Of a DNA stretch of 64,000 bases, positions 829 through 61,557 are shown one piece after another. The position numbers were made by a program, and so were the translations under genes. The notes below the pieces were generated by a model. It worked only from the letters and a program-made list of their open reading frames with translations, was not told the DNA's origin and made no database searches. How positions within the stretch are numbered: the first letter of the stretch is position 1; every line of letters begins with the position of its first letter. Source of the stretch: an uncultured virus (IMG/VR IMGVR_UViG_3300022752_000053) (lineage: Duplodnaviria; Heunggongvirae; Uroviricota; Caudoviricetes); IMG/VR virus record IMGVR_UViG_3300022752_000053. The stretch is one strand, 5' to 3'.

Positions 829-1479
829 ATGAAACTTATCAGAGAAGAAATCGAATCAGTAGAGTTTATCGTTGAAAGTCACAACGGTAAGAAATCACTT
901 TATATTGAAGGTGTTTTTCTTCAAGGTGATATTCGAAATCGTAATGGTCGTATGTATCCAATGGAAGTATTGCGTCGTGAAGTTTCTAGATATAATGAAA
1001 ATCATGTTCAATCTGGAAGAGCTCTTGGTGAGTTGGGTCATCCAGATGGTCCTACCGTCAATCTTGACCGAGTTTCCCATAAAATTGTTTCACTCAAAGA
1101 AAGTGGCACTAATTTTATTGGTAAGGCAAAGATTCTTTCAACACCAATGGGTAAGATTGCAGAATCACTTATCAATGATGGCGTAAAACTTGGTGTTTCT
1201 TCTCGTGGCATAGGATCTCTTCAACTTACTCGTGAAGGAATCAATGTTGTTGGTGAAGATTTTATGCTTGCAACTGCTGCAGATATTGTAGCAGACCCAT
1301 CTGCTCCTGATGCATTTGTATCGGGAATTATGGAAGGAAAAGAGTGGGTATGGGATGGTGGCATTCTCCGCGAGAAGTATGCATCCAAAACTTATGCAAG
1401 AATTAATACTCTTGTAACACAAAAGAAACTTGAAGAGAATAAATTGAATCTCTTCAACGATTTTCTCGCAAATCTTTAA
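829..1479 (+). CDS. gp21: Prohead core protease gp21
   Basis: NRNGRMYP, ALGELGHP, GVSSRGIGS, DIVADPSAPDA motifs of T4 gp21. Confidence 0.97.
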   Translation: MKLIREEIESVEFIVESHNGKKSLYIEGVFLQGDIRNRNGRMYPMEVLRREVSRYNENHVQSGRALGELGHPDGPTVNLDRVSHKIVSLKESGTNFIGKAKILSTPMGKIAESLINDGVKLGVSSRGIGSLQLTREGINVVGEDFMLATAADIVADPSAPDAFVSGIMEGKEWVWDGGILREKYASKTYARINTLVTQKKLEENKLNLFNDFLANL

Positions 1480-1527
1480 ATTATAAATAAATATAGATTA
1501 AAACTAGAGGTTAATCGGAGAGTTCAA

Positions 1528-2682
1528 ATGTCTCGTGGAGATTTACAAGAAATGGAAGTAGGCACTAAGCAATCCAGAACTGCTGTGAATGCGAACGCTA
1601 AAGCGGCAGAACCAATGCCAAAACTTACTACTGGAGGCGCTGGTGTAAGTTGGGAAGACCTTGGAGGTCCTACCCCAGAAAATTATAAATCAGATGATGA
1701 TTCAGCAAAACTAAAAACCCCAGGTGCAACACTCAAGCAAGTCAGAGATGTTGTCAATAAAGGTGCCAAAGGTGCTGATGCAATGAAAGGTCTTAATAAA
1801 GAAGATTCTGATTATGATGAAGATGAATCTCTGTTAGCAGAAGAGGAAGAAGAAAAGGAAAATAGTAAAAAAGACCAAAAAGAAGATAAGAAGGAATATG
1901 GTAAAAAGAAACCTTCTAAATCTGAAGAAGATGATAAGGATGATGAAGATATGGAAGAAGAGTATGACATCGAAAGTGATGTCAATGCTCTAGTTGGTGG
2001 AGAAGATCTTTCAGAAGAATTTAGAGAAAAAGCAAAGACCATCTTTGAAGCTGCTCTAAAATCCAAAGTTAATGAAATTAAAGAAGCTCTTGAAATTCAA
2101 TATACTGAAAGACTTAATGAAGAAATTGAAGAAATTAAAGAAGAATTTCAGGATAGAGTTGATTCTTACTTAGAATATGTTTCTGAAGAGTGGGTAGAAG
2201 AGAATCAACTTGCCATCGAGCATGGTCTTAAGACTGAAATGACCGAATCATTCCTTCAAGGAATGAGAGGTCTTTTTGAAGCACATTATGTATCAATCCC
2301 TGAAGATAAATATGATGTCCTCAATAGTATGGTAAACAAACTTGATGAAATGGAAACAAAACTCAACGAACAAATTGAAAGAAATATTTCTCTGAATAAG
2401 AGACTGGCAGAATCAGTTGCTGATGGGATTGTAAGCGATGTTTCTGAGGGTCTAACGATTACTCAGAAAGAAAAACTCGCTTCTCTTGCTGAAAATGTTG
2501 AGTTTGAGGGTGAATCCGATTTTCGTGAAAAGGTTGAAACTCTGAAGGAATCTTATTTCCCAAGAGTGTCAAATCAAAACAGAAGTTCAGACAATTTAAA
2601 TGAAGGTGTAGAAAGCCATCCAGAATATACTGGAAGCATGGCAACATATTTAAATGCTCTGTCTGCTGTAGTTAAAAAATGA
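1528..2682 (+). CDS. gp22: Prohead core scaffold protein gp22
   Basis: Acidic coiled coil, AKTIFEAA and VDSYLEYV motifs; lies between gp21 and gp23. Confidence 0.93.
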   Translation: MSRGDLQEMEVGTKQSRTAVNANAKAAEPMPKLTTGGAGVSWEDLGGPTPENYKSDDDSAKLKTPGATLKQVRDVVNKGAKGADAMKGLNKEDSDYDEDESLLAEEEEEKENSKKDQKEDKKEYGKKKPSKSEEDDKDDEDMEEEYDIESDVNALVGGEDLSEEFREKAKTIFEAALKSKVNEIKEALEIQYTERLNEEIEEIKEEFQDRVDSYLEYVSEEWVEENQLAIEHGLKTEMTESFLQGMRGLFEAHYVSIPEDKYDVLNSMVNKLDEMETKLNEQIERNISLNKRLAESVADGIVSDVSEGLTITQKEKLASLAENVEFEGESDFREKVETLKESYFPRVSNQNRSSDNLNEGVESHPEYTGSMATYLNALSAVVKK

Positions 2683-2729
2683 ATTTAAGATTATAAAAAA
2701 AACCACAAACAAAAACAAGGTAAAAACAA

Positions 2730-4145
2730 ATGTTGGAAAACATTAATCAAATTCAAGAGAAGTGGAAGCCACTTCTAGATTATGATGGTCTCGATACAAT
2801 CAGAGATCCCCATCGTAGAGCAGTAACTGCTGCCCTTCTTGAAAACCAAGAAAAATTCCTCAAGGAAGAAAGAGCTTTCATGTATGAGTCTCCAGTGGGA
2901 CTCTATGAATCTCCAACCATGTCAGGTAATGCTGCTGGTGCTTCAGGTGGATTTAGTGGTTCAGCTGGTGCCACAGGTCCTGTTGCTGGTTTCGATCCAG
3001 TTTTGATTTCACTGATTAGACGCTCAATGCCTAATCTGGTTGCTTATGATCTTGCTGGTGTGCAACCAATGAATGGTCCTACTGGACTTATCTTTGCAAT
3101 GCGCTCTAGATACACCAACCAGTCTGGTTCTGAAGCATTTTTCAACGAAGTTGATACTGCATTCTCTGGCGAAAACGCATCATTCAGTGCAACTGCAGGT
3201 TTCTCTTCTGTTACCTCCGGTTTTGGTACTACTGCTCAACAAGGCACAAACCCTGGTCTTCTTAATCCAGAAGCAAGTCAGGCACAAAATACCTACTCTA
3301 CTGGTCAGGGTATGGTAACTGGTGACTCAGAAAACCTTGGCGTTGCTTCTGGTCCTCAGTTTAACGAAATGGCTTTCTCAATCGAGAAGGTTACTGTTAC
3401 TGCGAAGTCAAGAGCACTCAAGGCTGAGTATTCACTTGAGCTCGCACAAGACCTCAAGGCAATTCATGGTTTGAATGCTGAAGCGGAATTGGCAAACATT
3501 CTCTCAACAGAGATTCTTGCTGAAATCAACCGCGAAGTTATTCGTACCATCTATAAGGTTGCTGAATCTGGTGCTGCTGTTGGTACTGCCAACGCTGGCA
3601 CATTCGACCTCGATGTTGACTCCAACGGTCGTTGGTCAGTTGAGAAGTTCAAGGGTCTTCTTTTCCAAATCGAGCGTGATGCCAACGCAATCGCACAAAG
3701 AACTCGTAGAGGAAAGGGTAACATCATCATGTGCTCTGCTGACGTTGCTTCAGCATTGACCATGGCTGGTGTGCTTGACTACACCCCTGCACTCAACGCT
3801 AACCTCAACGTTGATGACACTGGCAATACTTTTGCTGGCACCATTAACGGCAAGTATCGCGTTTATATTGACCCATATGCTGCTAACGTAGCATCCACCC
3901 ACTACTATGTGGTTGGTTATAAGGGCACTTCACCTTATGACGCAGGTATCTTCTACTGCCCTTACATTCCTCTCCAAATGGTTCGTGCCGTTGGTGAAAA
4001 CACCTTCCAACCAAAAATCGGGTTTAAGACTCGTTATGGTATGGTTGCTAACCCATTTGCTGCTGGCACAACTCAGGGCATGGGTGGTCTGTATCCTAAT
4101 GCAAACCGTTACTACAGACGTGTTGCTGTTACCAACCTTATGTGA
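2730..4145 (+). CDS. gp23: Major capsid protein gp23
   Basis: GVQPMNGPTGLIFAMR, KSRALKAEYS, FQPKIGFKTRYG motifs. Confidence 0.99.
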   Translation: MLENINQIQEKWKPLLDYDGLDTIRDPHRRAVTAALLENQEKFLKEERAFMYESPVGLYESPTMSGNAAGASGGFSGSAGATGPVAGFDPVLISLIRRSMPNLVAYDLAGVQPMNGPTGLIFAMRSRYTNQSGSEAFFNEVDTAFSGENASFSATAGFSSVTSGFGTTAQQGTNPGLLNPEASQAQNTYSTGQGMVTGDSENLGVASGPQFNEMAFSIEKVTVTAKSRALKAEYSLELAQDLKAIHGLNAEAELANILSTEILAEINREVIRTIYKVAESGAAVGTANAGTFDLDVDSNGRWSVEKFKGLLFQIERDANAIAQRTRRGKGNIIMCSADVASALTMAGVLDYTPALNANLNVDDTGNTFAGTINGKYRVYIDPYAANVASTHYYVVGYKGTSPYDAGIFYCPYIPLQMVRAVGENTFQPKIGFKTRYGMVANPFAAGTTQGMGGLYPNANRYYRRVAVTNLM

Positions 4146-7168: not shown

Positions 7169-7663
7169 ATGATTACGACTACAGTTATGACCAAGAAGAA
7201 AAGGTCAGAGCATTACGTTAATAATAAAGAATTTTTGATTGCTATGGTCGAGTATAAGAAACTCGTAGCAAATGCATTGGAACGTGGTGATCCAAAACCA
7301 CAAATTCCAAGATACATTGGAGAATGTTTTTTGAAGATTGCAAATCATTTATCATTTAAACCAAATTTTGTCAATTATATGTTTAAGGATGATATGATTT
7401 GTGATGGTATTGAAAATTGTGTAAGATACATTAATAATTTTGATCCTGAAAAATCTCAGAATCCTTTTGCATATTTTACTCAAATTATTCATTATGCTTT
7501 TTTGAGAAGAATACAACAAGAAAAAAAGCAATTAGAAATTAAAAATAAAATTTTAGAAAGAACCGGATTTACCGAAGTTTTTTCGGATGATGGGGTTGAC
7601 GGACTTAATAATTCGGACTACAATAGCATTAAAGACGCGGTTTACTCCAAACTCAGATCCTAA
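7169..7663 (+). CDS. gp55: Late-transcription sigma factor gp55
   Basis: HYVNNKEF, YMFKDDMICDGIENC, NPFAYFTQI. Confidence 0.96.
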   Translation: MITTTVMTKKKRSEHYVNNKEFLIAMVEYKKLVANALERGDPKPQIPRYIGECFLKIANHLSFKPNFVNYMFKDDMICDGIENCVRYINNFDPEKSQNPFAYFTQIIHYAFLRRIQQEKKQLEIKNKILERTGFTEVFSDDGVDGLNNSDYNSIKDAVYSKLRS

Positions 7664-10922: not shown

Positions 10923-13017
10923 AAAGGTTGAGACTGCCTGCTTCAACGTTCATACACGGGTGCTTACGCTACCTCTGTGGGAGAAAGCAAGCAACACCGT
11001 ATATGACTTGCTGGTGGGGCACGAGGTGGGCCATGCTCTCTTCACTCCTGATGAAGATTGGAGCGAGAATACTAAAGTTCCTCAACAGTTTATCAATGTG
11101 GTTGAAGATGCCCGAATTGAAAAATTGATGAAGCGTAAATATGGTGGACTTGCAAAGACATTCTATAATGGATATAAAGAACTGAATGATGAAGATTTCT
11201 TTCAGTTAGAGGATGAGGATATTTCTTCTTTCAATCTTGCCGATAAGGCAAATCTATTCTTTAAGATTGGTAACTTTCTTCCTTTAGATTTTTCCCCAGA
11301 AGAAAGTAAAATTGTTAGTCTGATTGGTGAGTGTGAATCATTTGATGATGCTCTTAATGCTGCAGAAAAACTTTATGAGTATTGCAAGAAAGAGCAGCAG
11401 CAACAGCAGAAAGTTGCCGATTTTGATTCTCACGGGCAAGAAGAAGGTAATAAATCTTCTGGTAATCAAGTACAAGAATCACAAGAAGATTCGGAAGAAT
11501 CTGAAGAGGGTAAATCCGATCAAGTGCAACCAGAAGAATCTGGCAGTTATGGTGGAACGGCTAAGGGAGAAGAAGTAAGTGTGGATAAATCAGAAGAACC
11601 TAAAGTTCGCACTGCAGATGCTCTTCGTGAAAAGATTGAAAATCTTGTGAACTATGATGCAAGTGAAAATACTTATGTAGAAATTCCTAAAGTCAATTTG
11701 GAAACTATAATCGGAAATAATTCTGAGATACATCAATACATTGATGAAAGTTTTACTTCTCAACAAGAAGGATTTGATGAAGTTTCAAAAGAAAATAATC
11801 TTGAATCTTATGATATATTTGAAGAAGTAGATAAATTATTTAAAGAATTTAAGAATTCTGCACAGAAAGAAGTCAACTATCTGGTAAAGGAATTTGAATG
11901 TCGTAAGGCAGCAGATAGTTATGCTCGTGCTTCTACTGCTCGCACCGGTGTTTTAGATACTGCTCGTCTTCATACCTATAAGTATAATGAAGACTTGTTT
12001 AAGAAAGTCAGTGTAATTCCTGATGGTAAAAATCACGGTTTGATTTTTATTCTGGATTGGAGTGGATCTATGCAAACAGTTCTTCAGGATACTTGCAAGC
12101 AACTGTTTAATCTTATTTGGTTCTGTAAGAAGGTTAATATTCCCTTTGAGGTTTATGCCTTTACAAATGAATGGCGCCGCCCCCAATATGATGCAAAAAC
12201 TGGAAGAATTTCACACGATTATCCTAAACATTATGAAATAAAGGAGGGATTGTTTTGTGTTTCTGAAGATTTTTCTTTGATGAATCTTTTTACAAGTAAG
12301 ACAAATACTAAAACTCTGGAACATCAGATGTTGAATATTTGGAGACTTGCTACTTGCTTCAGTAACACATATTCCTGTAAGTTTACTTATCCTCATCGTT
12401 TGTGTCTGTCTGGCACTCCTTTGAATGAAAGCTTGGTTGCTCTGCATCAAATTCTTCCAAAGTTTCAGAGAGACAATAAACTTCAAAAAGTTCAGTGTGT
12501 AATTTTGACTGATGGGGAAGCAAATCACATTCCTTATCATTATGAAGTAAAGCGTGGTACTGAACCTTATATGGGATTGCGTGGAATTTATCCTTCTTGC
12601 ACTTTTCTTCGGGATCGTAAAACCGGAAACACCTATAAATTTGGATGTGAGTACTATGAATTTTCAAATACTCTTTTGAAGAATTTGAAAGATAATTTTC
12701 CAACAGTGAATTTTATTGGCATTCGTGTTCTTGCAAATCGGGATGCGGCTCGTTTTATTGGAATTTATTACAAGCAAGCAACTAATGAATATGATAAAAT
12801 TATGACAGATTGGAGAAAGCAAAGGAGTTTCAATATCTCAACCTCTGCATATGATGCATACTTTGGACTTTCTGCTTCTGCTCTTTCTCAAGAGGCAGAA
12901 TTTGAGGTTGCCGAAGATGCCACCAAATTGCAAATTAAGAATGCCTTTGCAAAATCTTTGAAGACTAAGAAATTAAATAAGAAAGTTTTGGGAGAGTTTA
13001 TGGAACTTGTTGTCTAA
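10849..13017 (+). CDS. Metallopeptidase-like + vWA domain protein (CobT-like partner of the AAA ATPase)
   Basis: HEVGH and NVVEDARIE at the N-terminus, acidic linker, MIDAS DWSGSM...GTPL...LTDGEA. Confidence 0.85.
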   Translation: MAVNHEIKSQLARLLATEDLVVEHKKVETACFNVHTRVLTLPLWEKASNTVYDLLVGHEVGHALFTPDEDWSENTKVPQQFINVVEDARIEKLMKRKYGGLAKTFYNGYKELNDEDFFQLEDEDISSFNLADKANLFFKIGNFLPLDFSPEESKIVSLIGECESFDDALNAAEKLYEYCKKEQQQQQKVADFDSHGQEEGNKSSGNQVQESQEDSEESEEGKSDQVQPEESGSYGGTAKGEEVSVDKSEEPKVRTADALREKIENLVNYDASENTYVEIPKVNLETIIGNNSEIHQYIDESFTSQQEGFDEVSKENNLESYDIFEEVDKLFKEFKNSAQKEVNYLVKEFECRKAADSYARASTARTGVLDTARLHTYKYNEDLFKKVSVIPDGKNHGLIFILDWSGSMQTVLQDTCKQLFNLIWFCKKVNIPFEVYAFTNEWRRPQYDAKTGRISHDYPKHYEIKEGLFCVSEDFSLMNLFTSKTNTKTLEHQMLNIWRLATCFSNTYSCKFTYPHRLCLSGTPLNESLVALHQILPKFQRDNKLQKVQCVILTDGEANHIPYHYEVKRGTEPYMGLRGIYPSCTFLRDRKTGNTYKFGCEYYEFSNTLLKNLKDNFPTVNFIGIRVLANRDAARFIGIYYKQATNEYDKIMTDWRKQRSFNISTSAYDAYFGLSASALSQEAEFEVAEDATKLQIKNAFAKSLKTKKLNKKVLGEFMELVV

Positions 13018-13041
13018 TAAATAACTAAAAAGTTTATAAAA

Positions 13042-13554
13042 ATGAAGACTTTCCAGCAATTTGTGGTAGAATGTAATTCTATTCAGGAAACCTCCTTGAA
13101 TAGAATTAAGTCAAAATCTGACAAAGGTGGAATGGCAATTATGTCTGCTCAAAGAGGAGACAAATCGGGTAAGGAAAATAAAGCAAGATCTAAACAACTT
13201 GAAAAGGATATTAGAGGTGCTGGATTACCAGGACCTACTAAAGTCTCTGGAAGATATACAGAAAATCCAGGAACCTCCCAGGAGAAAAAAGTAGGAGAGA
13301 AATCTCACGTTGTTTCTTCTGGTAAAATGGGTAAGAGAAAGTTCAAGAAAGCAATTACAAAACTTGGAGCAAAGTATAATCAAGACTCCGTTCTTGTACA
13401 GAAAAAACCTGGCGGTTCAGCGCAATTCACAGGAACTTCTAAAACATCTTGGCCTGGAAAGGGTAAGAATGTTAAAGTTGGTAAAATGAACCCTGGTAAA
13501 ACAGGAGAATTTGATACTAAAGTTAAAAACAAAACATTTACATATGGTGATTGA
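13042..13554 (+). CDS. Putative SAM lyase (T3 SAMase-like) with capsid-targeting-like N-terminus
   Basis: SAQR..ENKAR..GRYTE..GEKS..QDSVLV parallels T3 SAMase motifs as recalled; starts MKTFQQFVVE; late promoter at 13017. Confidence 0.6.
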   Translation: MKTFQQFVVECNSIQETSLNRIKSKSDKGGMAIMSAQRGDKSGKENKARSKQLEKDIRGAGLPGPTKVSGRYTENPGTSQEKKVGEKSHVVSSGKMGKRKFKKAITKLGAKYNQDSVLVQKKPGGSAQFTGTSKTSWPGKGKNVKVGKMNPGKTGEFDTKVKNKTFTYGD

Positions 13555-13556
13555 TT

Positions 13557-13706
13557 ATGAAAAAAACTAATAATATTGATAAACTTTTGAACATTGATTA
13601 CAACAATAAAATTATCACTCAAAAAAGAGAATTAAATCCACCATCATTTAATGCTCGTTTTAGAAATGAGGTTAGAGAAAAGTATCCTGACTATGAATTG
13701 AAATAG
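13557..13706 (+). CDS. Small hypothetical protein (49 aa)
   Basis: MKKTNNIDKLL...PDYELK fills the gap after the previous stop; below the ORF-track cutoff. Confidence 0.4.
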   Translation: MKKTNNIDKLLNIDYNNKIITQKRELNPPSFNARFRNEVREKYPDYELK

Positions 13707-13789
13707 TGCCACTTGATTAACTGGCACAGGGGGCGTTTTTCACCCCCTTTTTTCGTCTATAATGACTATGTTGAAACAAACCACTCGTT

Positions 13790-14890
13790 ATGCCTCGCAC
13801 CAAAATGACTCCCGATTATATTGCTTCTTCTCTCAAATCACTTTACGGCACAAAAATTACTGCTGCTGATGTGCGTGGGTGGTGTTCTAGTAATGGTAGC
13901 TCTTATCAAACGGTCACTAAAAATCTTGATAAATATAAGACTTCTCGCGGCCGCTGGAATCTTGAAGTGACGCAAGAAAAAGTGCAAGAGATCGAACGTA
14001 GTTATACTTCCCCCGCTGCTCTTCCTGCTGTGGAACAAAATCTTATTCCTGATAAAGATGATACCTTCGTCAAGTTTGGCAACTTTAACGATATTAAGAA
14101 AATTATACAGTCCCGTCTTTTTTATCCAGCGTTTATTACGGGTCTTTCGGGTAATGGTAAAACGTTCAGTGTGGAGCAAGCTTGCTCTCAACTTGGTCGT
14201 GAGTTAATACGTGTAAATGTTACAATTGAAACCGATGAAGATGATCTTATTGGCGGCTTCCGCCTTGTTAATGGTGAAACCGTCTGGCACAATGGCCCAG
14301 TCATTGAAGCCCTTCAACGAGGTGCTGTATTGTTACTTGACGAAATCGATCTTGCCAGTAACAAAATTCTCTGTTTACAATCTGTCTTGGAAGGAAAAGG
14401 AGTTTTTCTTAAAAAAATTGGAAAATTCGTTAAACCAGCAAGTGGATTCAACATCATCGCAACTGCCAATACTAAAGGCAAAGGTTCGGACGACGGTAGG
14501 TTTATTGGAACTAACGTGCTCAACGAAGCATTTCTAGAGCGTTTTCCTGTAACCTTTGAGCAGTCCTATCCTTCTCCAACAGTGGAGCAAAAGATTCTTG
14601 AGGGTATTGCTCTAGATCTTGGTGTAGAAGATCGTGAATTCTGCAAGCGTCTTGTTGATTGGGGTGATATTATTCGTAAGACTTTTTATGATGGTGGTAT
14701 TGAGGAAATCATTTCCACCCGCCGCCTAGTTCATATCATTCGTGCCTATTCAGTATTTGGTGATAAGGCAAAGGCAATTCAAGTTTGCGTAAATCGTTTT
14801 GACGACGAAACTAAGCAAGCATTTATTGAATTGTATGATAAGGTTGATGTTGATTTTCAACTTCCAGTTGACACTGATACTTCCAACTGA
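13790..14890 (+). CDS. cobS: MoxR/CobS-like AAA+ ATPase
   Basis: Walker A GLSGNGKT, Walker B LLLDEID, ATANTKG, AFLERF, ISTRRL. Confidence 0.9.
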   Translation: MPRTKMTPDYIASSLKSLYGTKITAADVRGWCSSNGSSYQTVTKNLDKYKTSRGRWNLEVTQEKVQEIERSYTSPAALPAVEQNLIPDKDDTFVKFGNFNDIKKIIQSRLFYPAFITGLSGNGKTFSVEQACSQLGRELIRVNVTIETDEDDLIGGFRLVNGETVWHNGPVIEALQRGAVLLLDEIDLASNKILCLQSVLEGKGVFLKKIGKFVKPASGFNIIATANTKGKGSDDGRFIGTNVLNEAFLERFPVTFEQSYPSPTVEQKILEGIALDLGVEDREFCKRLVDWGDIIRKTFYDGGIEEIISTRRLVHIIRAYSVFGDKAKAIQVCVNRFDDETKQAFIELYDKVDVDFQLPVDTDTSN

Positions 14891-17580: not shown

Positions 17581-17771
17581 AATTTAATTATCAAGATCTT
17601 AAAGAGGGTAGTGTTAAAACTACTCCCCAAAATGTTGAGGAAGCAAATCAAAATTTGTTTCGGTCTAAGTGGAATCTTCCGAAGGCAGCAAGGCATTGTG
17701 GAATGACTAATAAGGAAATGAAACTTACATTTTTTGAATATCTAAAATACAATAAACCCGATTATGAGTAA
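17577..17771 (+). CDS. Hypothetical protein
   Basis: 64-aa ORF overlapping both neighbours. Confidence 0.6.
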   Translation: MKFNYQDLKEGSVKTTPQNVEEANQNLFRSKWNLPKAARHCGMTNKEMKLTFFEYLKYNKPDYE

Positions 17772-18639
17772 ACTAAAAACTCCCTTACGTTATCCTGGTG
17801 GAAAAAGTAGAGCTGTCGTCAAGATGCAACAATACTTTCCCGATATGAGAGATTATGATGAATTTCGTGAACCATTTCTAGGTGGTGGATCTGTTGCTAT
17901 TGATGTAACTCAACTTTATCCTAACCTAAGTATTTGGGTAAATGATCTTTATGAACCATTAGTTAATTTTTGGAAAATCCTTCAAAGTGAGGGAGAAAGA
18001 CTTTCTGAAAATCTTCTTATCATAAAACAGAAATATAATACTCCAGATAGAGCAAAGGTTGTATTCTTGGAGTCAAAAGAATATCTTACTCATAAAAAAT
18101 CGTCAAGTTCTAATTTTAATTTTGATCGAGCACTATCTTTTTATATTGTAAATAAATGCTCCTTTAGTGGTCTTACTGAAGCATCAAGTTTTTCCCCACA
18201 AGCATCTGATAATAATTTTACAGAAAGAAGTATTGGTCTTCTTCCAGAATACTCAAAAATAATTGAAAAATGGAGAATTACAAATCTTTCTTATGAAGAG
18301 TTAGTTTCTGATAATCATAGTGGTGCCTTTGTTTACTTGGATCCACCTTATGATATTAAGGATAATCTATATGGTAGAAAGGGTGAGATGCATAAAAAGT
18401 TTGATCATGATAAGTTTGCTGAAGTTTGTAATACCACAAATATGAATATGATGGTGAGTTATAATTCAGATCAACTTGTAAAGGATCGTTTTTCCGGAAA
18501 AGACTGGAAAGCATATGAGTTTGATTTAACTTATACTATGCGATCCGTTGGTGATTATATGAAAGAGCAACAAGAAAGAAAGGAATTATTACTACTAAAT
18601 TATGACTTACGAACTGAAGGACTGGTTGAACTCTATTAA
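17764..18639 (+). CDS. dam: DNA adenine methyltransferase (Dam family)
   Basis: LRYPGGKS, EPFLGGGSV, YLDPPY. Confidence 0.93.
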   Translation: MSKLKTPLRYPGGKSRAVVKMQQYFPDMRDYDEFREPFLGGGSVAIDVTQLYPNLSIWVNDLYEPLVNFWKILQSEGERLSENLLIIKQKYNTPDRAKVVFLESKEYLTHKKSSSSNFNFDRALSFYIVNKCSFSGLTEASSFSPQASDNNFTERSIGLLPEYSKIIEKWRITNLSYEELVSDNHSGAFVYLDPPYDIKDNLYGRKGEMHKKFDHDKFAEVCNTTNMNMMVSYNSDQLVKDRFSGKDWKAYEFDLTYTMRSVGDYMKEQQERKELLLLNYDLRTEGLVELY

Positions 18640-19525: not shown

Positions 19526-19972
19526 ATGTTCGGAACAAATGCACTTACACTTTCAGTACCAGAAACTGCAAAGTATTTGTTAGATATTCAAAAAAACAGT
19601 ATTGGAATGGATGAATGGTTTAAGAGGTTTGATACTACGTTTGAGACGCACACAAACTATCCACCATATAATCTTGTGAAAGAAGATAGTATTACTTTTA
19701 GATTGGAAATTGCTCTTGCTGGATTCAAGAGAGATGAAATTGAAGTTACTACTGAATGGAATAAACTTTTAGTAGAGGCAAAAAAATCTGATGATGTAGA
19801 TGAAGAATATTTACATCAGGGACTTGCCAAGAGAGCATTTACTCGCACCTGGACTTTATCTGATGATGTGGAAGTTAAGGATGTTGCTTTTGTTGATGGA
19901 TTACTCACTATCAAACTAAATAGAGTTATTCCAGAACATCAGAAGAAGAAGGTTTATGAAATCTTTCAGTAA
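19526..19972 (+). CDS. hsp20: Small heat-shock protein Hsp20
   Basis: NYPPYNL, LEIALAGF, AKRAFTRTWTL, DGLLTI; GGAGG RBS. Confidence 0.94.
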   Translation: MFGTNALTLSVPETAKYLLDIQKNSIGMDEWFKRFDTTFETHTNYPPYNLVKEDSITFRLEIALAGFKRDEIEVTTEWNKLLVEAKKSDDVDEEYLHQGLAKRAFTRTWTLSDDVEVKDVAFVDGLLTIKLNRVIPEHQKKKVYEIFQ

Positions 19973-20138
19973 ATTTGTATGCGAAGCAAATTTGATTTCA
20001 TATCCAATGGCCAAACCCCACAAGGCAGACCAGAGGTGGATTAAGGGTGGTAAGGCACTGCCCAAACGCTCTGGGTCCAGCGCAGGAGGTCCTGCAGGCG
20101 ATTCTGGTGGAGGATCTGGCGGCGGGTCTGATACATAA
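19956..20138 (+). CDS. Small Gly/Ser-rich protein with capsid-targeting-like N-terminus
   Basis: Starts MKSFSKFVCEA; possible late promoter CTAAATA at 19916. Confidence 0.55.
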   Translation: MKSFSKFVCEANLISYPMAKPHKADQRWIKGGKALPKRSGSSAGGPAGDSGGGSGGGSDT

Positions 20139-26819: not shown

Positions 26820-27869
26820 ATGGATCCTAAGGAACTCAGAGGTTTGATGGAAGCATATACTGAAGTTTATGCTCCACAAGAAGAAATTGATGAAGCATCA
26901 TATTCTGCAAAGGCAGCAAGAGCAGGTAAAGATATCGGTAAACCTGGTAAAGCATTTTCAAAAATTGCTGCTTCTGCTGCAAAGCGTTATGGTTCTGAAG
27001 AGAGCGGTAAGAAAGTTGCTGGTGCAGTATTAGCAAAACTTCGTAAAGAAGAAATTGAAATTCTTGAAGATGTTATTGATGAAAATAGAATGGCTTCTCG
27101 CATGGAGAAAATGCCATCAGCACCTGCTAAAGTTGGTAAGGCAACTCATTCAACCAAAGATCTTGTTCCTTCAAAACCACCAACACCAGAAGAAAAGGCA
27201 AAGGCAAGAAAGGCACTTGGACTTGGTGAAGCAACTGCCATGGCAAAGAGGGGCAAGGATGAGACTGCTATTCGTAACAAGATTGCTTCATCAACTGGTG
27301 GTGGGCAATCTGCAGATAGAGCAGGAGCATTAGCAGATAGACCAACATATGGACAATCTGGTACTGATCCTAAAGCTAGAGCAAATTATGCAAGAAAGCA
27401 GATGGGTGATTTCCGCAAAACAAATTCATCTAATCCAGGACTTCACGGTTATGGTCATAAATCAAATGATCCTGAGGTAAAAGCAAAGCAAGCAGCAAGA
27501 GGAGCACAGAGAGGATCTGCTACTCTAACTCCTAACGAGAAGAAGAAACTTAATATGGGTGAAGCATACGACCTTTACGACATCATCCTTTCACATCTTA
27601 TTGATGAAGGTTATGCTGATACTCAAGAACAAGCAGAAGTCATTATGGTGAATATGAGTGAGGATTGGAGAGATAGTATTATTGAAACTCGTTTGGATCC
27701 AAGAGGTCGTCCTGCTTCTGGTCCTATGAATGTTTATGCTAATCCAAAGAAACCTTCACAGGCACATTTGGATGCTGTAAAAGCATATGATGAGAAGCAG
27801 AAAAAGAAAACTCCTGAGCAAAAAAAGGCAGAACTTGATGCTTATATGAATAGAAAAATGTATAGTTAA
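26820..27869 (+). CDS. Late modular basic protein, candidate internal head polyprotein
   Basis: Late promoter at 26793; Lys/Ala-rich blocks separated by acidic hydrophobic-X-Glu linkers. Confidence 0.55.
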   Translation: MDPKELRGLMEAYTEVYAPQEEIDEASYSAKAARAGKDIGKPGKAFSKIAASAAKRYGSEESGKKVAGAVLAKLRKEEIEILEDVIDENRMASRMEKMPSAPAKVGKATHSTKDLVPSKPPTPEEKAKARKALGLGEATAMAKRGKDETAIRNKIASSTGGGQSADRAGALADRPTYGQSGTDPKARANYARKQMGDFRKTNSSNPGLHGYGHKSNDPEVKAKQAARGAQRGSATLTPNEKKKLNMGEAYDLYDIILSHLIDEGYADTQEQAEVIMVNMSEDWRDSIIETRLDPRGRPASGPMNVYANPKKPSQAHLDAVKAYDEKQKKKTPEQKKAELDAYMNRKMYS

Positions 27870-29219: not shown

Positions 29220-29250
29220 ACAAATAAATAAAGGTATATAATCAAACAAT

Positions 29251-30507
29251 ATGAAGAATTTCTTCCAATTTTTATCAGAAGCGAGAGAATCCCAGGCATC
29301 GGATCAAGCAAAACGTCTTGGATTGGTTGGTGATGGTCATGGTGGATGGAAAGATAAGAAGGGGGAGTATGTTGCAAAGACTGAAAAGGGAAAATTAAAA
29401 TTCTTTAATCAACAGCAAAACGCGGGTCAAAAAGATGAACCTCAAGTGAGGTCTCCAAAAAATCAACAAGTTACTGCTGCTCAATCTGGAAATGCTCCAG
29501 CAACTCAACCACAACCTCAACAAAAAGTAGCACCTTCGGGAATTAATAAATCTGCAGAAGATGTGGGTGATACAACAGAAGAGAAAGGTGATAAAGGTTC
29601 GGTAACAATTGTATTTGGTAGATTTAATCCACCTACAATTGGGCATGAAAAACTTTTAAATAGTGCAGATAAAGTTTCAACGGGTGGAAATTTAAAGATA
29701 TATCCATCAAGAAGTCAAGATCCTAAAAAGAATCCTTTAAAACCAGACACTAAGATATCTTACATGCGTAAGATGTTTCCTAAGTATGGTGAGAAGATTA
29801 TTAATGACAATGATATGAAAACTATCTTTGATGTTTTAAAAAGAGCAGATGAGGATGGATACTCTTCGGTTAATATTGTAGTTGGTTCTGATCGTCAAGC
29901 AGAATTTGAAAATCTTGCAAACAAATATAATGGAGATCTTTATAATTTTGAAGAGATTCAAGTTATTTCTGCTGGTGTGAGAGATGCTGATGCTGAAGGT
30001 GTGGAGGGAATGTCTGCATCTAAGATGAGAAAAGCAGCAGCAGAAAATGATTTTGTTGCATTTGGTCGAGGTGTGCCGAAATCATTAGGTGATGATGAGA
30101 CTAAAAAATTATTCACGGCATTACGTTCGGCAATGAATGTGAAGGAGGGATATGAAATGTGGCGGATTGCTCCAAAATTTGATTGGAAAAATCTTCGTGA
30201 AAATTATATTATTGAAAAAGTTTTTAAAGTTGGTGATATCGTAGAAAATTTAAATACGGGAATTGTTGGTGAAGTGATTCGTAGAGGAACTAATCACTTA
30301 ATATGCTTAACTGCTGAAGGTATGATGTTTAAATCCTGGATTAAAGACTTAAATGAATATACTGAAGTTAAGATGGATAGTATACAAAGAGCACCAGGAA
30401 AACCAAATACATTAGTGGGCACTGGGGGATTTAGAAAACTTGCAATGAAAATGACTGGGACGACAGATATAAAAAATTTCATAAATAAGCATAGAATAAA
30501 AAAGTAA
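29251..30507 (+). CDS. Cytidylyltransferase/NMNAT-like nucleotidyltransferase
   Basis: FGRFNPPTIGH, VVGSDR, MSASKMR; N-terminus MKNFFQFLSEA. Confidence 0.85.
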   Translation: MKNFFQFLSEARESQASDQAKRLGLVGDGHGGWKDKKGEYVAKTEKGKLKFFNQQQNAGQKDEPQVRSPKNQQVTAAQSGNAPATQPQPQQKVAPSGINKSAEDVGDTTEEKGDKGSVTIVFGRFNPPTIGHEKLLNSADKVSTGGNLKIYPSRSQDPKKNPLKPDTKISYMRKMFPKYGEKIINDNDMKTIFDVLKRADEDGYSSVNIVVGSDRQAEFENLANKYNGDLYNFEEIQVISAGVRDADAEGVEGMSASKMRKAAAENDFVAFGRGVPKSLGDDETKKLFTALRSAMNVKEGYEMWRIAPKFDWKNLRENYIIEKVFKVGDIVENLNTGIVGEVIRRGTNHLICLTAEGMMFKSWIKDLNEYTEVKMDSIQRAPGKPNTLVGTGGFRKLAMKMTGTTDIKNFINKHRIKK

Positions 30508-30512
30508 CTTGC

Positions 30513-31484
30513 ATGTCAGAATTTACTGGTAGTCAACTTTATGATATGGGATTGGTCTATAAAGAAGTTATTGCTGAATCAGCAGTTCCTGGAAAACCCG
30601 CAGAGCGTCTTGGTGCAGTAAGTGCTATTCCCCAGGATGAGCGTGAAGCAGCAAAGCAAAGAACTCTTGCAAAGGCAGCAGCATTGAGAGCAAAAAAAAA
30701 TATCACACAAGAAGCAAAAGAATCAAATGATGGAAATCTTGCAAACAATTATCCCCCATACGATAAAGTCACTAGAGGAGATGTAATTGCAGGAAGACTT
30801 GGAAAAGATCAGATGGGTGGTAAGAAGAAAAAGAAAGTAAAAGAATCTTTTTCAAACTGGAGAAATGATCTTCGTGAAATTGCAGATGAGATTGAGTCAA
30901 AGACTTCAGAAAGTAATACTAAAACAATTACTGGAATGCCGCCAGGAAAAAAGAATAAAATCACCACTAGTCCTTCATTTAAGGAAGCAGTTGAGGAAAT
31001 TGGTGGTGAATTGATTGAGATGGTTAAAATTGATGAAAAAGCACCTCCTGGTGCAAAGTTTGAAAGAATGGTTAAGCATATTAAACAAGGATATTCTAAG
31101 AATGGATTGACTAAAAAAGAAAAGTCGATTGCTTATGCAACTGCTTGGAAAGCAAAAAATGTTGAAGAAGAAATGGATACAAATCTAATTGATCAGCAAC
31201 AACTTAAGAATAAAGAATTGATAATGAAAAAAAGGAATCAATTGCAAACTCAGCAATTGACTCTACAGAAACAAGGTAAACTTCCTTTAAATATTGAAGC
31301 AAAAGAATCTGCTTATGATGATTCTTTGTTGGGGAGAACTGCAGAACGTGCTAAAAGAGATGATTTGGTTGGAATGGCAATTCAAAGAGATCCAAAAGCA
31401 TATCAAAGAGCACTTAAGCAAATGGCAGTAGATAGAGAGAATGAAAGAAAACGCAAAGAAAAGATTAGAAATAATCCTGTGTGA
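30513..31484 (+). CDS. Late modular basic protein, candidate internal head polyprotein
   Basis: Late promoter at 30481; basic modules bounded by IAE, VKE, IDE, VEE. Confidence 0.55.
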   Translation: MSEFTGSQLYDMGLVYKEVIAESAVPGKPAERLGAVSAIPQDEREAAKQRTLAKAAALRAKKNITQEAKESNDGNLANNYPPYDKVTRGDVIAGRLGKDQMGGKKKKKVKESFSNWRNDLREIADEIESKTSESNTKTITGMPPGKKNKITTSPSFKEAVEEIGGELIEMVKIDEKAPPGAKFERMVKHIKQGYSKNGLTKKEKSIAYATAWKAKNVEEEMDTNLIDQQQLKNKELIMKKRNQLQTQQLTLQKQGKLPLNIEAKESAYDDSLLGRTAERAKRDDLVGMAIQRDPKAYQRALKQMAVDRENERKRKEKIRNNPV

Positions 31485-42431: not shown

Positions 42432-42896
42432 ATGGAAAATGGTTTTTATTCTCTCACAGAAATTGACAGTGAGTTTAAATTAGAAAATCTTAGAATAATT
42501 AGAAATGAATGTCGAGAGTATATGACTCGATATAATGATGAAATATCTAAGCAACAGCAAAGACAATGGTTTGATTCTTTAGATAAAACTAAAACTTTTC
42601 CATATTTATTTTTAGAAAATTATTATGGAGCTTGTCTTACTTTTATTGGATATGGAATGATTCAACTTGAAAATGGAGTTTCTTCTTTGAGTGCCGGATT
42701 ATCAAAAAATAATCAGGGAATGGGACTTGGAAAAATTTTATTTGAAAATTTAATTGAAAAATCTAAAGAAATGAATTGTGCATCTATAGAATTGGAAGTT
42801 TTAAAAACCAATATTAGAGCATATAAACTTTATGAAAAACTTGGATTTAAAGTTGCAAATGAAAATGATAATATATATCATATGAAATTGACTTGA
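42432..42896 (+). CDS. GNAT acetyltransferase
   Basis: QGMGLG acetyl-CoA motif; NIRAYKLYEKLGF. Confidence 0.88.
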   Translation: MENGFYSLTEIDSEFKLENLRIIRNECREYMTRYNDEISKQQQRQWFDSLDKTKTFPYLFLENYYGACLTFIGYGMIQLENGVSSLSAGLSKNNQGMGLGKILFENLIEKSKEMNCASIELEVLKTNIRAYKLYEKLGFKVANENDNIYHMKLT

Positions 42897-42901
42897 AGTT
42901 G

Positions 42902-43627
42902 ATGAAAGTATCCATTCTTTGTTGCTATTATAATCGACCAAATATGGTTAGATTTGCTTTGAATTCTATTAAGAATCAAAGTTATAAAAATTGGGAATTA
43001 ATTTTTGTTGATGATGCAAGTGAATTTCCTGGAGATCCAGTAGTTAGAGAAATTTTATCTGCAGATATCGATAAGATAAAATTCTATAATACAAATGATC
43101 CCGAAAAGAAAGAAGGTGAAAGTGTATTTGGAAAATATTGGAATATTGGATCTTTAGAAAGTGACTCTGATATTTCCATTATGCTTTGTGATGATGATGC
43201 ATTAATGCCAAATTATCTTGAATCATTGGTTGATTGGTATTCAAATAATCCAGAGCAAAATTATTCATATTGCCATTTAAATATATTTGATCCTTATCAA
43301 GTTAAATCTTTAGAAGAAGTTAAATTGAATACGGATTATGTGTTGAATCACACTGGACATATAAATCCATATTCAATGGTAGATGCAAGTCAAGTTTCTT
43401 GGAAAACTGATGCAATTCGTTTACATGGAGTAAGATTTCCATATCCCAAAACATCAAGTTTAGATGCAGTCTTATATGCACAACTTGTTCAGATATATGG
43501 ATTATGCCCATTTAATGGTATAATAGGACAATATAAAGGTGTGCATTCTGATCAGTTAAATGTTAGAGAAACATCAAATAAAGATACAATGTATAATGTG
43601 AGAGACATTCCCCATATTCCATTATGA
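42902..43627 (+). CDS. Glycosyltransferase family 2
   Basis: VSILCCYYNR, ELIFVDDAS, CDDD. Confidence 0.85.
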   Translation: MKVSILCCYYNRPNMVRFALNSIKNQSYKNWELIFVDDASEFPGDPVVREILSADIDKIKFYNTNDPEKKEGESVFGKYWNIGSLESDSDISIMLCDDDALMPNYLESLVDWYSNNPEQNYSYCHLNIFDPYQVKSLEEVKLNTDYVLNHTGHINPYSMVDASQVSWKTDAIRLHGVRFPYPKTSSLDAVLYAQLVQIYGLCPFNGIIGQYKGVHSDQLNVRETSNKDTMYNVRDIPHIPL

Positions 43628-44709
43628 TTCCGTTATTTAAAGTTAAAATGTCCGACTCAGCATCTGAGTTGGTATCTGCAGTATTAGCATCTGGATTTAT
43701 TGGTCAAGGTTCTAAGGTAGAAGAATTTGAAGATTTACTTTGGAAAGAATTAAAAACTAATATTCGACCAATTACTGTAAATTCTTGCACAAGTGCAATT
43801 GATTTAGCTCTTCATCTTTGTAAGGTAGGTCCTGGTGATGAAGTTATTTCCACACCACAAACTTGCTTTGCTAGTCAAGTTGGAATTATTCATCGTAATG
43901 CTACTATTCGTTGGGCAGATATCGATCCTATGACGGGATTGATGAATCCTGATAGTGTAAAAAACTTAATTACTTCCAAGACTAAAGCAATTGTATCTGT
44001 GAATTGGGCTGGAAAAATATGTGATTATGCTGCTCTTAAGTCATTTGGTGTTCCAGTAATTGAAGATGCTGCACATACTTGGGATTCATTTTTGCAAAAT
44101 CCTATCGAGCGTGGAGATTATATTTGTTATAGTTTTCAAGCAATTAAATTTCTTACTACGTCCGATGGTGGATTATTGATTACTCCTGAAGATAAGCAAG
44201 ATGATGCTCGTCTTCTCAGATGGTATGGTCTTGATAGAACTAAAAATCAATCTTTTAGATGCACTCAAAATATTATTGAAGCTGGATTCAAATATCACAT
44301 GAATGATGTTTGTGCTGCTATTGGTATTTGCAATATTCCTGAGGCAAGAGATTCTGTAATTAAGCATCGAGAAAATGCTAAGTTTTATTCTGAAAATCTT
44401 AAAGAATGTAGTAGTGTTTCAGTTTTAGATTTTGATGATACTTGTTCTTATTGGTTGTATTCGTTGCTTGTTGAAAGTGGTACAAGAGATGAATTTATTT
44501 CTTACTTAAATCAAAATGGAATTACCGCAAGTCCAGTGCATCATAGAAATGATTTATATGAATGCACTTCCAAATTTTCGGAAGGAAGTCTTTTGGGTGT
44601 AGATAAGTTTTATGAAAAGCAAGTTAGCATTCCTGTTGGGTGGTGGGTAACTTCTGAGGAAAGAAGTTACATTGTAAATACAATTAAATCATATTTTCCA
44701 AATGGTTAA
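43624..44709 (+). CDS. DegT/DnrJ PLP-dependent sugar aminotransferase
   Basis: NSCTSAI, IEDAAH, SFQAIKFLTTSDGG (catalytic Lys). Confidence 0.92.
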   Translation: MIPLFKVKMSDSASELVSAVLASGFIGQGSKVEEFEDLLWKELKTNIRPITVNSCTSAIDLALHLCKVGPGDEVISTPQTCFASQVGIIHRNATIRWADIDPMTGLMNPDSVKNLITSKTKAIVSVNWAGKICDYAALKSFGVPVIEDAAHTWDSFLQNPIERGDYICYSFQAIKFLTTSDGGLLITPEDKQDDARLLRWYGLDRTKNQSFRCTQNIIEAGFKYHMNDVCAAIGICNIPEARDSVIKHRENAKFYSENLKECSSVSVLDFDDTCSYWLYSLLVESGTRDEFISYLNQNGITASPVHHRNDLYECTSKFSEGSLLGVDKFYEKQVSIPVGWWVTSEERSYIVNTIKSYFPNG

Positions 44710-44759
44710 ATAGTCTTGGGAAGACTCTAAACTCACCCTGGTCAGGAGTGTAAGCCCTT

Positions 44760-44981
44760 ATGTCTAAGACAAGTATACTTCGTTACTTAGGCAATATTCT
44801 CCTCATAGTTGGTTATCAAACTATGTTGTGGGGAGATTTCAAATATGGACTACTTGTAAAATGCGTTGGTGGTATTTTAACAATACCTTTCGCAGTGAAA
44901 CTTAAACTCTATGATGTTTTGGTTTTATGTGGATTTTTTACCGTAAACGAGATAGCAAAGTTAGTCCATTTATTTTCTTAG
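44760..44981 (+). CDS. Small membrane protein
   Basis: 73 aa, 2-3 hydrophobic segments; AGGAG upstream. Confidence 0.65.
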   Translation: MSKTSILRYLGNILLIVGYQTMLWGDFKYGLLVKCVGGILTIPFAVKLKLYDVLVLCGFFTVNEIAKLVHLFS

Positions 44982-45021
44982 TTTTCTAAAAACTAAGTGG
45001 TGGAGTCAAATATGACCCTAT

Positions 45022-45117
45022 TGTTTTCTTGCTTTTCTCAAAAGCAAGTGGTGCGGATGGGGAATTCTTTCTCCGCCTGGTTTCCAATTTCCAGTTAAAG
45101 AATTGGTGGCGAGCCTG
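45022..45117 (+). ncRNA. wcaG RNA motif-like element
   Basis: Two stem/pseudoknot units each followed by TGGYG and linked by a hairpin, upstream of a WcaG-type epimerase; family assigned from memory. Confidence 0.6.
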
Positions 45118-45173
45118 GTTTACATGGGGGGTTGACAATAACCCCCCTTTTTTGTATGATAAAGAAAAAACTT

Positions 45174-45989
45174 ATGAAGTATTCAGTTTACGGTGGCACT
45201 GGTTTTGTTGGTGGAAATTTTTGTCAAATGTTTTCTGACATCTCATTACCAGTAAAACGGGATGCAAGAGAACCTTTAACAGATAAGGTAATCTATTTCA
45301 TTTCAACAATTCATAATTATAATGTGTATGATGATTTACATTTAGATATTGACACAAATTTGAATGTGTTGGTTGATGTTTTAGATAAGTGTAGAGATAA
45401 AAATATTACATTTAATTTTATTAGTTCTTGGTTTGTTTATGGGAGATCTAGACTTCCTGCTAGAGAGGATGACTATTGTGATCCAAAAGGATTTTATTCG
45501 ATTACAAAGAGAGCTGCAGAGCAATTATTAATTTCTTTTTGTGAAACTTTTGGTGTTAAATATCGCATTCTTCGTTTGTGTAATGTTTATGGGAATGGTG
45601 ATAAGAAGTCTTCATCAAAAAAGAATGCGATCCAATATATGATTGATTTGATTAAGACTGGAGATGATGTTAACCTCTATGAGGGTGGATATGTTTTAAG
45701 AGATTTGATGCACGTAAATGATGTTTGTCGTGCAATTAAATTGGTCTGTGAAAGGGGAGAATTGAATACAATTTATAATATTGGTAGTGGTCAACCAGTA
45801 GCAATTCATAGTATAATGCAGCAAGTTAAAGATCATCTAAATAGTCCGAGCAAATTTAATACTATTGAAACTCCAAGATTTCATGACATTGTGCAATCTC
45901 GTGATTTCTATATGGACGTATCTAAACTTAAGTCTCTTGGATTTAATCAAACAATAACACTTGATGATGGTATCAGAAGTTTATTATGA
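45174..45989 (+). CDS. NAD-dependent epimerase/dehydratase
   Basis: GGTGFVG, YSITK (YxxxK), LRLCNVYG. Confidence 0.9.
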   Translation: MKYSVYGGTGFVGGNFCQMFSDISLPVKRDAREPLTDKVIYFISTIHNYNVYDDLHLDIDTNLNVLVDVLDKCRDKNITFNFISSWFVYGRSRLPAREDDYCDPKGFYSITKRAAEQLLISFCETFGVKYRILRLCNVYGNGDKKSSSKKNAIQYMIDLIKTGDDVNLYEGGYVLRDLMHVNDVCRAIKLVCERGELNTIYNIGSGQPVAIHSIMQQVKDHLNSPSKFNTIETPRFHDIVQSRDFYMDVSKLKSLGFNQTITLDDGIRSLL

Positions 45990-46699
45990 AAAAAATACCA
46001 GTATTGGGAACTCAATCATTAAATTCATTTACCAATTTAAAAAATTTAATCAATTCAATTGATTATCCAGTAGAAACATTATCTATTGTTATTAACAGTG
46101 AAAATGTTAATTATTTTTTAGATGTTGATGAATTCTGTAAAAATAATATTGATAAAGATTTAATTGAAAGAGTCGATATAAGTTTTCACCCAACCAATCT
46201 TGGATGTCCCGCAAGTTGGAATTACCATTTCAAATCATATCCTTATGCAGATTTTTTTGTAAAACCTGATGATGATATTGTCTTTTCTCCAGGAGATCTT
46301 GAGAAAATTGTAAATGCATTGTCCTCTCATGATATGGTTTTTTATTCCTCGGGCACAGGATATGCTTGTTTTGGAATTACTAAACATACTCTTAAAACCG
46401 TAGGGTTATTTGATGAAAATTTATTCCCATGTAATTATGAGGATAATGATTATGAGTTGAGATGTAATTCATATGAAATCAAGAAAATATCTTTAAGTTT
46501 AAATACTCATCATGTTTCTTCTGGCACCAGTAGAAACATAACAGCAGAAGAGCATGAAAAATACTTGCAAAAATATCTTATAACTACTGAAGAATATTTT
46601 CATCGAAAGTGGAATGGAGAATTTGGCAATCCATTACAATGGTGGTATAATTACAACTATAGAGAAAACAAAATTTTTAGGTATAAAAACTATTATTGA
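45986..46699 (+). CDS. Glycosyltransferase (GT2-like)
   Basis: NLGCPASWN, PDDDIVF, VGLFDENLFPCNYEDNDY. Confidence 0.75.
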   Translation: MKKIPVLGTQSLNSFTNLKNLINSIDYPVETLSIVINSENVNYFLDVDEFCKNNIDKDLIERVDISFHPTNLGCPASWNYHFKSYPYADFFVKPDDDIVFSPGDLEKIVNALSSHDMVFYSSGTGYACFGITKHTLKTVGLFDENLFPCNYEDNDYELRCNSYEIKKISLSLNTHHVSSGTSRNITAEEHEKYLQKYLITTEEYFHRKWNGEFGNPLQWWYNYNYRENKIFRYKNYY

Positions 46700-46704
46700 T
46701 TTTT

Positions 46705-61191: not shown

Positions 61192-61557
61192 TTGGTGGAA
61201 TTGGAAAATCATCTGGGAACTCACTACATTTTGGATGCTTGTAATTCAAATGGGGAATTGTTAAATAACAAAGAATACATCATGAATTCTTTGAAACATG
61301 CTATACTAAAGTCAAATGCCACTTTAGTGGAAGAAATTGCTGTGGAATTTACTCCACAGGGAATTACTGCAGTTTGTTTACTTGCAGAGTCTCATCTTTC
61401 AATTCATACTTGGCCAGAGAAAAGTTATGCTGCAATAGATATCTTTACTTGTGGCGATCATTGTAATCCTATCGACGCTTGTAATTTTTTGGTGAATGCA
61501 TTTGAATCTAAAACTCCAAAGATACATGTTATTAATCGTGGATATGGATTCTCATAG
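61192..61557 (+). CDS. speD: S-adenosylmethionine decarboxylase proenzyme
   Basis: FTPQGIT..LLAESHLSIHTWPE..DIFTCG. Confidence 0.93.
   Translation: MVELENHLGTHYILDACNSNGELLNNKEYIMNSLKHAILKSNATLVEEIAVEFTPQGITAVCLLAESHLSIHTWPEKSYAAIDIFTCGDHCNPIDACNFLVNAFESKTPKIHVINRGYGFS

Follow-up and report, generated by a model that had tools for sequence, protein, structure and literature searches.

Some phage proteins, such as Alt of T4 and DarA and DarB of P1, are loaded into the head, ejected with the DNA and act before gene expression. The S-adenosylmethionine (SAM) lyase of phage T3 (gp0.3, or SAMase) takes another route: it is the first early gene of its phage and is made from the injected DNA. It counters type I restriction and, according to an abstract listing, bacteriophage exclusion (BREX). 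We analysed a stretch of 64,000 nucleotides from an uncultured virus of the Caudoviricetes (IMG/VR record IMGVR_UViG_3300022752_000053; the whole stretch is called the window below), in which a 170-residue open reading frame (ORF) encodes a relative of the T3 enzyme behind a T4-like leader. By analogy with T4 internal proteins, the virion probably carries this lyase and injects it along with its DNA, which would blunt host restriction.

The chemistry of SAM lyases, which yields methylthioadenosine and homoserine lactone, was established on Svi3-3. Among proven SAM lyases only Gly56, Glu69 and Gln104 (Svi3-3 numbering) are strictly conserved, and Tyr58 packs on the substrate (Guo et al., PMC7877911). 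SAM lyases form oligomers whose active sites lie between subunits; the T3 enzyme is dimeric (PMC8406200) and Svi3-3 trimeric (PMC7877911). SAM-AMP is a known alternative substrate of the fold (PMC12255297). As for head loading, the first ten residues of the T4 leader suffice, with positions 4 and 7 serving targeting and positions 8 and 10 processing (PMC9026906). Judging by reference titles in the same review, T4 IPI* is an injected restriction-nuclease inhibitor. A described homologue is gp6 of cyanophage S-CREM2, annotated as 'S-adenosyl methionine hydrolase (virion protein)'. In work published in 2023, mass spectrometry of purified virions identified it by 19 unique peptides, and its discoverers suggested entry together with the DNA as a protection against restriction (PMC10665884).

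The window is a T4-like cyanomyovirus stretch with all its genes on the + strand. The lyase unit is compact and sits between a CobT-like gene and cobS. Its parts, and the phage proteins that may act on it, are:

13016-13023, + strand: late-type promoter motif AATAAATA, which fits NATAAATA, 19 nt before the ATG
13042-13554, + strand: pro-enzyme ORF, 170 amino acids plus stop
13042-13071, + strand: leader, residues 1-10 (MKTFQQFVVE), resembling the T4 capsid-targeting sequence and ending V-V-E
13072-13089, + strand: spacer, residues 11-16 (CNSIQE), whose last three residues are the candidate protease site I-Q-E
13090-13551, + strand: predicted mature SAM lyase domain, residues 17-170 (Pfam, T3 profile match, Foldseek, conserved residues)
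13557-13706, + strand: small downstream ORF, 49 amino acids from its ATG, phrog_3538 (function unknown)
13706-13754, + strand: two hairpins followed by U6, a terminator-like end of the unit (-20 kcal/mol, z -2.5)
829-1479, + strand: prohead core serine protease of the T4 gp21 type, Peptidase_S77 (E 9.4e-36)
1528-2682, + strand: capsid assembly scaffolding protein of the T4 gp22 type, T4_CASP (E 7.3e-79)
7169-7663, + strand: late sigma factor of the gp55 type, phrog_234 (E 7.4e-68)

The original prediction had proposed a SAM lyase from five motifs, and these lie in the claimed order: SAQR at residues 35-38, ENKAR at 45-49, GRYTE at 70-74, GEKS at 85-88 and QDSVLV at 114-119. The T3 counterparts that it had named (SAFR, NMSR, GCYRE, EEKT and QDCVLV) proved to be real and in register in a profile alignment to 7OCK, and both proteins follow the pattern SAxR, N..R, G.Y.E, E-K and QD.VLV. 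The comparisons that it had proposed, by profile and by structure with T3 SAMase and Svi3-3, both gave matches. Residues 33-168 match Pfam PF23780 (S-AdoMet_lyase), the family of T3 SAMase, scoring 60.6 bits where the curated cut-off is 28 (E 2e-16). A Pfam match to DUF3293 (E 0.008, under its cut-off) was disregarded. At E ≤ 0.001 the ORF has 2005 relatives when only proteins of like length are counted, and 916 in a set of 50%-identity representatives. A profile built from 57 diverse homologues matches T3 SAMase (PDB 7OCK/8BB1) with E 3.7e-4. The AlphaFold model of the ORF (predicted local distance difference test, pLDDT, 88.2; predicted template-modelling score, pTM, 0.79) was compared with the PDB by Foldseek, and the top 7 matches were all T3 SAM lyase or Svi3-3. 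The best was 8bb1_E (E 3.8e-6, template-modelling score (TM) 0.61/0.69), which makes the T3 enzyme the closest solved fold.

The residues that bind the substrate are also in place. Across the 57 homologues, whose mean column identity is 24%, G70, E86 and Q114 are invariant and Y72 is conserved in at least 90%. Counted on the profile alignment, they stand in register with G55, E68, Q94 and Y57 of T3 SAMase, and they correspond to Gly56, Glu69, Gln104 and Tyr58 of Svi3-3. Because Pfam, the T3 profile match, the fold and the substrate-binding residues all agree, we assigned the ORF to the SAM lyase family, of which it is a genuine member by sequence and modelled structure. Svi3-3 (6ZM9, 6ZMG, 6ZNB) shares the strictly conserved Gly, Glu and Gln and the Tyr with our protein and gives a structural match with E 7.5e-4, but this match is weaker than that of T3 (TM 0.35-0.42), and Svi3-3 has a trimeric PII-like form and no known leader. 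The window lyase also departs from T3 SAMase: its gene stands behind a late-type promoter motif, and the protein has a leader of the T4 kind and an additional helix near the N-terminus (residues 19-28).

The leader is what sets this lyase beside the T4 internal proteins. We translated the T4 record NC_000866 and confirmed the sequence with which the original prediction had compared the start of the ORF: IPII and IPIII begin MKTYQEFIAE, and IPI begins MKTFKEF. The window leader shares six of its ten residues with IPII and IPIII and differs conservatively at the other four, while some homologues share nine of ten (P0015). We retrieved 267 relatives and recognised the start of the domain by pattern in 222 of these, of which 166 carry the leader pattern. 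Of the 166, 164 have F or Y at position 4, 161 have F at position 7, 151 have M, I, V or L at position 8 and 143 have E at position 10; these four conserved positions are the ones with a role in T4. Leader and domain are 10 to 218 residues apart, and the leader is retained across inserts that are basic and unrelated to each other. Some of the long homologues (P0029, P0044, P0045, P0054, P0085, P0100 and others; 220-290 amino acids and more) contain one or more basic modules in the stretch that separates the leader from the enzyme, such as GDWWHPDPE..., ELFITRKSPEE... and GMTMKDFKANRRK.... Every module junction in them ends in hydrophobic-x-E, and the arrangement resembles a small head-cargo polyprotein.

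Candidate processing sites were recognisable as well. The T4 leader ends in hydrophobic-x-Glu, as does that of the window lyase, and the 19-residue propeptide of T4 IPI ends I-T-E, to which the 16-residue option in the window protein is similar. The possible gp21 site I-Q-E of the original prediction was borne out as a protease-type sequence: it occupies residues 14-16, a Glu precedes the domain (which starts T/S-S-L-x-R) in 214 of the 222 homologues whatever the insert, I, L, V or M stands two residues ahead of that Glu in 214 of 222, and a prohead protease is encoded in the window. In the model, residues 1-20 have low confidence, with pLDDT below 50 at residues 12-14, and we therefore place the leader outside the compact fold. 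A short helix at residues 4-12, also of low confidence, is detached from the domain.

The late-type promoter motif that had been predicted at 13017 is present. The word ATAAATA occupies 13017-13023 and, with the A that precedes it, fits NATAAATA, the late promoter of cyanomyoviruses (PMC2984593). On the coding strand of the window there are 26 of the 28 occurrences of ATAAATA, and 17 of these 26 lie 5-45 nt ahead of a called start, where 5.7% of positions would place them (P 1.4e-15). The same signal recurs in the upstream 60 nt of 80 related lyase loci, whose sequence is otherwise divergent: ATAAATA is found in 45 and TAAATA in 72, and several of the 8 loci without TAAATA have mis-called or cut starts. 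A scan for sigma-70 promoters around the lyase gene gave sites no commoner than in shuffled sequence. The phage encodes its own late sigma factor of the gp55 type, which would read NATAAATA promoters. The 49-residue ORF apparently shares the transcription unit of the lyase.

The machinery needed for a T4-like loading route is encoded nearby. Besides the Peptidase_S77 protease, which is presumed to process the lyase, and the gp22-type scaffold, presumed by analogy to be the docking core for the leader, a Gp23 homologue lies within 829-4145 (E 1.9e-150). A DUF7243 protein at 270-827 precedes the protease behind an ATAAATA motif; it occupies the place that small prohead core proteins have in T4.

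We consider it likely, by analogy, that the ORF is the pro-form of a T3-type SAM lyase that is loaded into the head through its leader, processed, ejected with the DNA and there cleaves SAM. The gene would be transcribed late, and its leader would dock the pro-enzyme on the scaffold core while the prohead is being assembled. Cleavage by the prohead protease after E10, after E16 or after both would then leave an enzyme of 154-160 residues inside the head. At the next infection this enzyme would exit together with the DNA and at once convert SAM to methylthioadenosine and homoserine lactone, ahead of any phage gene expression, and the loss of SAM would starve host methylation and the defences that depend on SAM, namely restriction of types I and III and BREX. 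Late transcription and packaging are modelled here on the T4 internal proteins, and the steps from docking to SAM cleavage on T4 and T3. The likeness to T4 has limits: the cargo here is predicted to remove a cofactor rather than to inhibit one nuclease, and the phage is a cyanophage. Alt, DarA and DarB are unrelated to the lyase as proteins and in activity, and P1 loads its proteins by a different route.

The leader is not confined to the lyase. In the six frames of the window its pattern occurs only at the starts of three ORFs, a tally that covers the 64 kb. Besides the lyase these include:

29223-30507, + strand: second leader-bearing candidate cargo, a 418-residue cytidylyltransferase/NMNAT-like protein (phrog_395), ATG at 29251, starting MKNFFQFLSEA

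Its gene has NATAAATA at 29223-29230, 21 nt ahead of the ATG. Orthologues of the protein have been detected in virions of S-CREM2, S-SZBM1 and S-SCSM1, and that of S-SZBM1 begins MRFRQFIIEA. The window protein is a candidate for an injected NAD-related enzyme. Its linker motif RLGLVGDGHGGW...G.L.F is found again in gp12 and gp14, two virion proteins of S-CREM2. The third start, MKSFSKFVCEA, belongs to a 60-residue ORF at 19956-20138 that had no match in the phage collection. In viral contigs it has two identical copies only, and since it occurs elsewhere in identical copies only we did not accept it as an established gene. It is basic, rich in Gly and Ser, and overlaps the end of an hsp20 gene.

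The virion list of S-CREM2 allowed a comparison with purified particles. Its gp6 is 54% identical to the window lyase over residues 1-167 and begins with the leader MKDFDSFLEE, but it lies at another position in its genome, beside a Dam methylase (two genes away), and the excerpts of its description mention neither a leader nor processing (PMC10665884). A six-frame scan of the whole S-CREM2 genome found the strict leader at four gene starts (gp6, gp13, gp14 and gp154), and gp136 begins with a looser form. Of the 219 coding sequences, 52 were detected as proteins in CsCl-purified virions, and these 52 include all five leader-bearing ones (Table 3, PMC10665884). The hypergeometric chance of this overlap is about 0.003 for the four and about 0.0007 for the five, with a pattern that was refined after three of its proteins had been seen. 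Another virion protein, gp12 (L001 7704-10313), annotated as a Cas9-like nuclease, has a leader-like LRFASFMAEA about 17 residues into the annotated protein; translation may in fact begin downstream of the annotated start, or this may be an internal leader.

We also scanned viral contigs for the exact heptapeptide MKTFQEF, which drew on 80 loci on contigs related to each other. There were at least 85 matches, and among those listed 82 are at the first ATG of an ORF and 63 of 85 have TAAATA within 45 nt upstream (3.7% in background windows). The 81 distinct ORFs among the matches listed include 16 with the Pfam SAM lyase domain, 3 with DUF5661, 1 with DUF6321, 1 that is weakly PARP-like and 60 without a Pfam family. 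Four ORFs of 150-181 amino acids among these matches (L133, L142, L158 and L161) join the leader MKTFQEFIAEA to a weakly PARP/ADP-ribosyltransferase-like domain. The PARP match in Pfam concerns L142 only (E 3.9e-4), and all four recall the packaged T4 enzyme Alt.

These patterns tip us somewhat towards the view that the leader, M-K-x-F-x-x-F-hydrophobic-x-E, serves as a general and portable address label, which T4 and the cyanomyoviruses both received from their common ancestor and which loads a changing kit of 'first-strike' enzymes into the head. The kit would comprise the SAM lyase, the NMNAT-like nucleotidyltransferase, kinases, ADP-ribosyltransferase-like proteins and many small basic proteins. 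Two Ala/Lys/Gly-rich proteins of no known family in the window, at 26820-27869 and 30513-31484, each stand behind an ATAAATA and may be more head cargo or carry a second kind of leader. The former begins MDPKELRGLMEAYTEVY, and a similar N-terminus is fused ahead of a leader-bearing SAM lyase in the metagenome protein P0084.

Several observations weigh against a head-loaded, injected SAM lyase. Identity to T3 SAMase is only about 15%, and a single-protein phmmer search of the PDB found no match, the T3 enzyme being reached by the family profile only. The word ATAAATA is not over-represented in the window as a whole (28 occurrences for 30.3 expected). The first site in the window protein is V-V-E, and V at that place is in the minority, seen ahead of the domain in 18 of 222 homologues. 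The leader of some homologues joins the domain directly, so the conservation of E16 and I14 could partly serve folding. S-CREM2 gp6 has 414 residues and a long C-terminal extension. The homologues and the contigs are related to each other, and their counts are therefore not independent events. Finally, the same phage encodes two users of SAM, a Dam-type (D12-class N6-adenine) DNA methyltransferase at 17764-18639 and the SAM decarboxylase SpeD at 61192-61557. We speculate that sequestering the lyase in heads would lessen the conflict with both.

The protein could also be a genuine SAM lyase, made late, that stays in the cytoplasm of the producing cell, where it would, for instance, keep progeny DNA unmethylated or shut down host metabolism, the likeness of the leader having no role in targeting. 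The authors of the S-CREM2 study themselves caution that abundant late proteins may co-purify with virions (PMC10665884), and a leader that adjoins the domain in some homologues could belong to it. We nevertheless regard an unpackaged enzyme as unlikely: the leader persists although linker length ranges from 10 to 218 residues, its conserved positions are the ones important in T4, it also starts many unrelated proteins, and 5 of 5 leader proteins of S-CREM2 are on a virion list that holds 52 of the 219 coding sequences. A cytoplasmic lyase would, moreover, starve the phage's own Dam methylase and SpeD.

The fold family includes SAM-AMP lyases, one phage enzyme cleaves SAM-AMP and not SAM, and the active sites of SAM and SAM-AMP lyases have only the Glu and the Gln in common (PMC12255297). 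T3 SAMase, our closest solved structure, forms inhibitory filaments with E. coli MetK (PMC8406200). An injected protein that acts mainly by cleaving SAM-AMP, as an anti-CRISPR, or by binding and inhibiting the host SAM synthetase is thus conceivable, but we judge it rather improbable, as all of the top 7 structural matches are SAM lyases with T3 the closest, and our protein family retains the Tyr and the Gly which in Svi3-3 pack against SAM. Type III CRISPR systems are also rare in picocyanobacteria. Less probable still, to a degree that we give it very little weight, is a packaged basic internal protein with an inactive enzyme fold and a structural role in DNA condensation or ejection. The protein is indeed lysine-rich, and many of the other leader ORFs among the matches listed are small, basic and without known domains, like the T4 internal proteins. 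Yet in a family as divergent as this one G70, E86 and Q114 never vary and Y72 hardly does; such invariance of substrate-binding residues points to selection on catalysis.

SAM lyases and the T4 loading signal are already known, and a 2023 paper described a virion-associated 'SAM hydrolase' in a cyanophage and put forward the idea that it comes in with the DNA (PMC10665884). In the open-access papers that we searched we found no description of a capsid-targeting leader in cyanophages, nor of leader, cut site and late promoter as a loading mechanism, nor of the portability of the leader. An injected lyase would differ from that of T3 in its timing: T3 must express its enzyme before restriction acts, and a pre-loaded enzyme ends that race. 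T4 heads carry 20-200 leader-fusion proteins each (PMC9026906), and Svi3-3 turns over about 9.5 times per second (PMC7877911). If the SAM pool is assumed to be about 100 micromolar in a cell of 0.1-0.5 fl, it amounts to 6,000-30,000 molecules, and by this rough estimate, which ignores Km and resynthesis, a few tens of enzyme molecules could exhaust it within about 1 minute.

If the leader is a portable label, the injected counter-defence effectors of uncultured T4-like phages could be read from sequence, and the SAM lyase would be a cofactor-destroying anti-restriction enzyme that is delivered as protein rather than expressed. Leader, cut site and late promoter would together give a sequence rule for spotting virion-delivered effectors in metagenomes. 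Such loading would account for the 'metabolic' enzymes that recur in cyanophage virion proteomes, and the T4 head-loading signal would be much older and wider than the T-even phages. The leader might also be used to load chosen proteins into cyanophage heads.

The wider window is that of a T4-like phage without a close relative in the phage collection that we searched, where the sole match was cobS (74-80% DNA identity). Its other genes include:

829-4145, + strand: prohead protease, scaffold and major capsid protein
within the window, + strand: UvsY, UvsW, gp47/46 nuclease, CobT-like peptidase and CobS
within the window, + strand: clamp, clamp loader, Dam-type methylase, DNA polymerase, UvsX, helicase and ribonucleotide reductase
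within the window, + strand: a large sugar-modification island, psbA and speD

In phage S-SZBM1 the CobT-like gene directly adjoins cobS, and because these two genes are adjacent there we regard the lyase unit as an accessory insertion. Nine DNA sequencing runs labelled as freshwater or lake-water metagenomes contain 0.56-0.75 of the sampled words of the stretch 12600-14000, and given these labels the psbA-carrying phage is probably a freshwater cyanophage. Contigs from three RNA libraries also fall on the lyase unit: five from X11 over 13072-13747, with the flanks uncovered, cover from X16 over 13245-13837, and scattered, more divergent ones from X17. They may derive from DNA and indicate neither transcription, timing nor ends, and we did not use them as support.

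The sugar and cell-envelope island spans 13.6 kb (42432-56023). It encodes a GNAT acetyltransferase, two DegT-type aminotransferases, two epimerases/dehydratases and glycosyltransferases of families 2, 11, 17 and 25. Next come an SLH-domain protein (56106-56990), a C39-like peptidase (57307-57999) and an endolysin (57996-58670).

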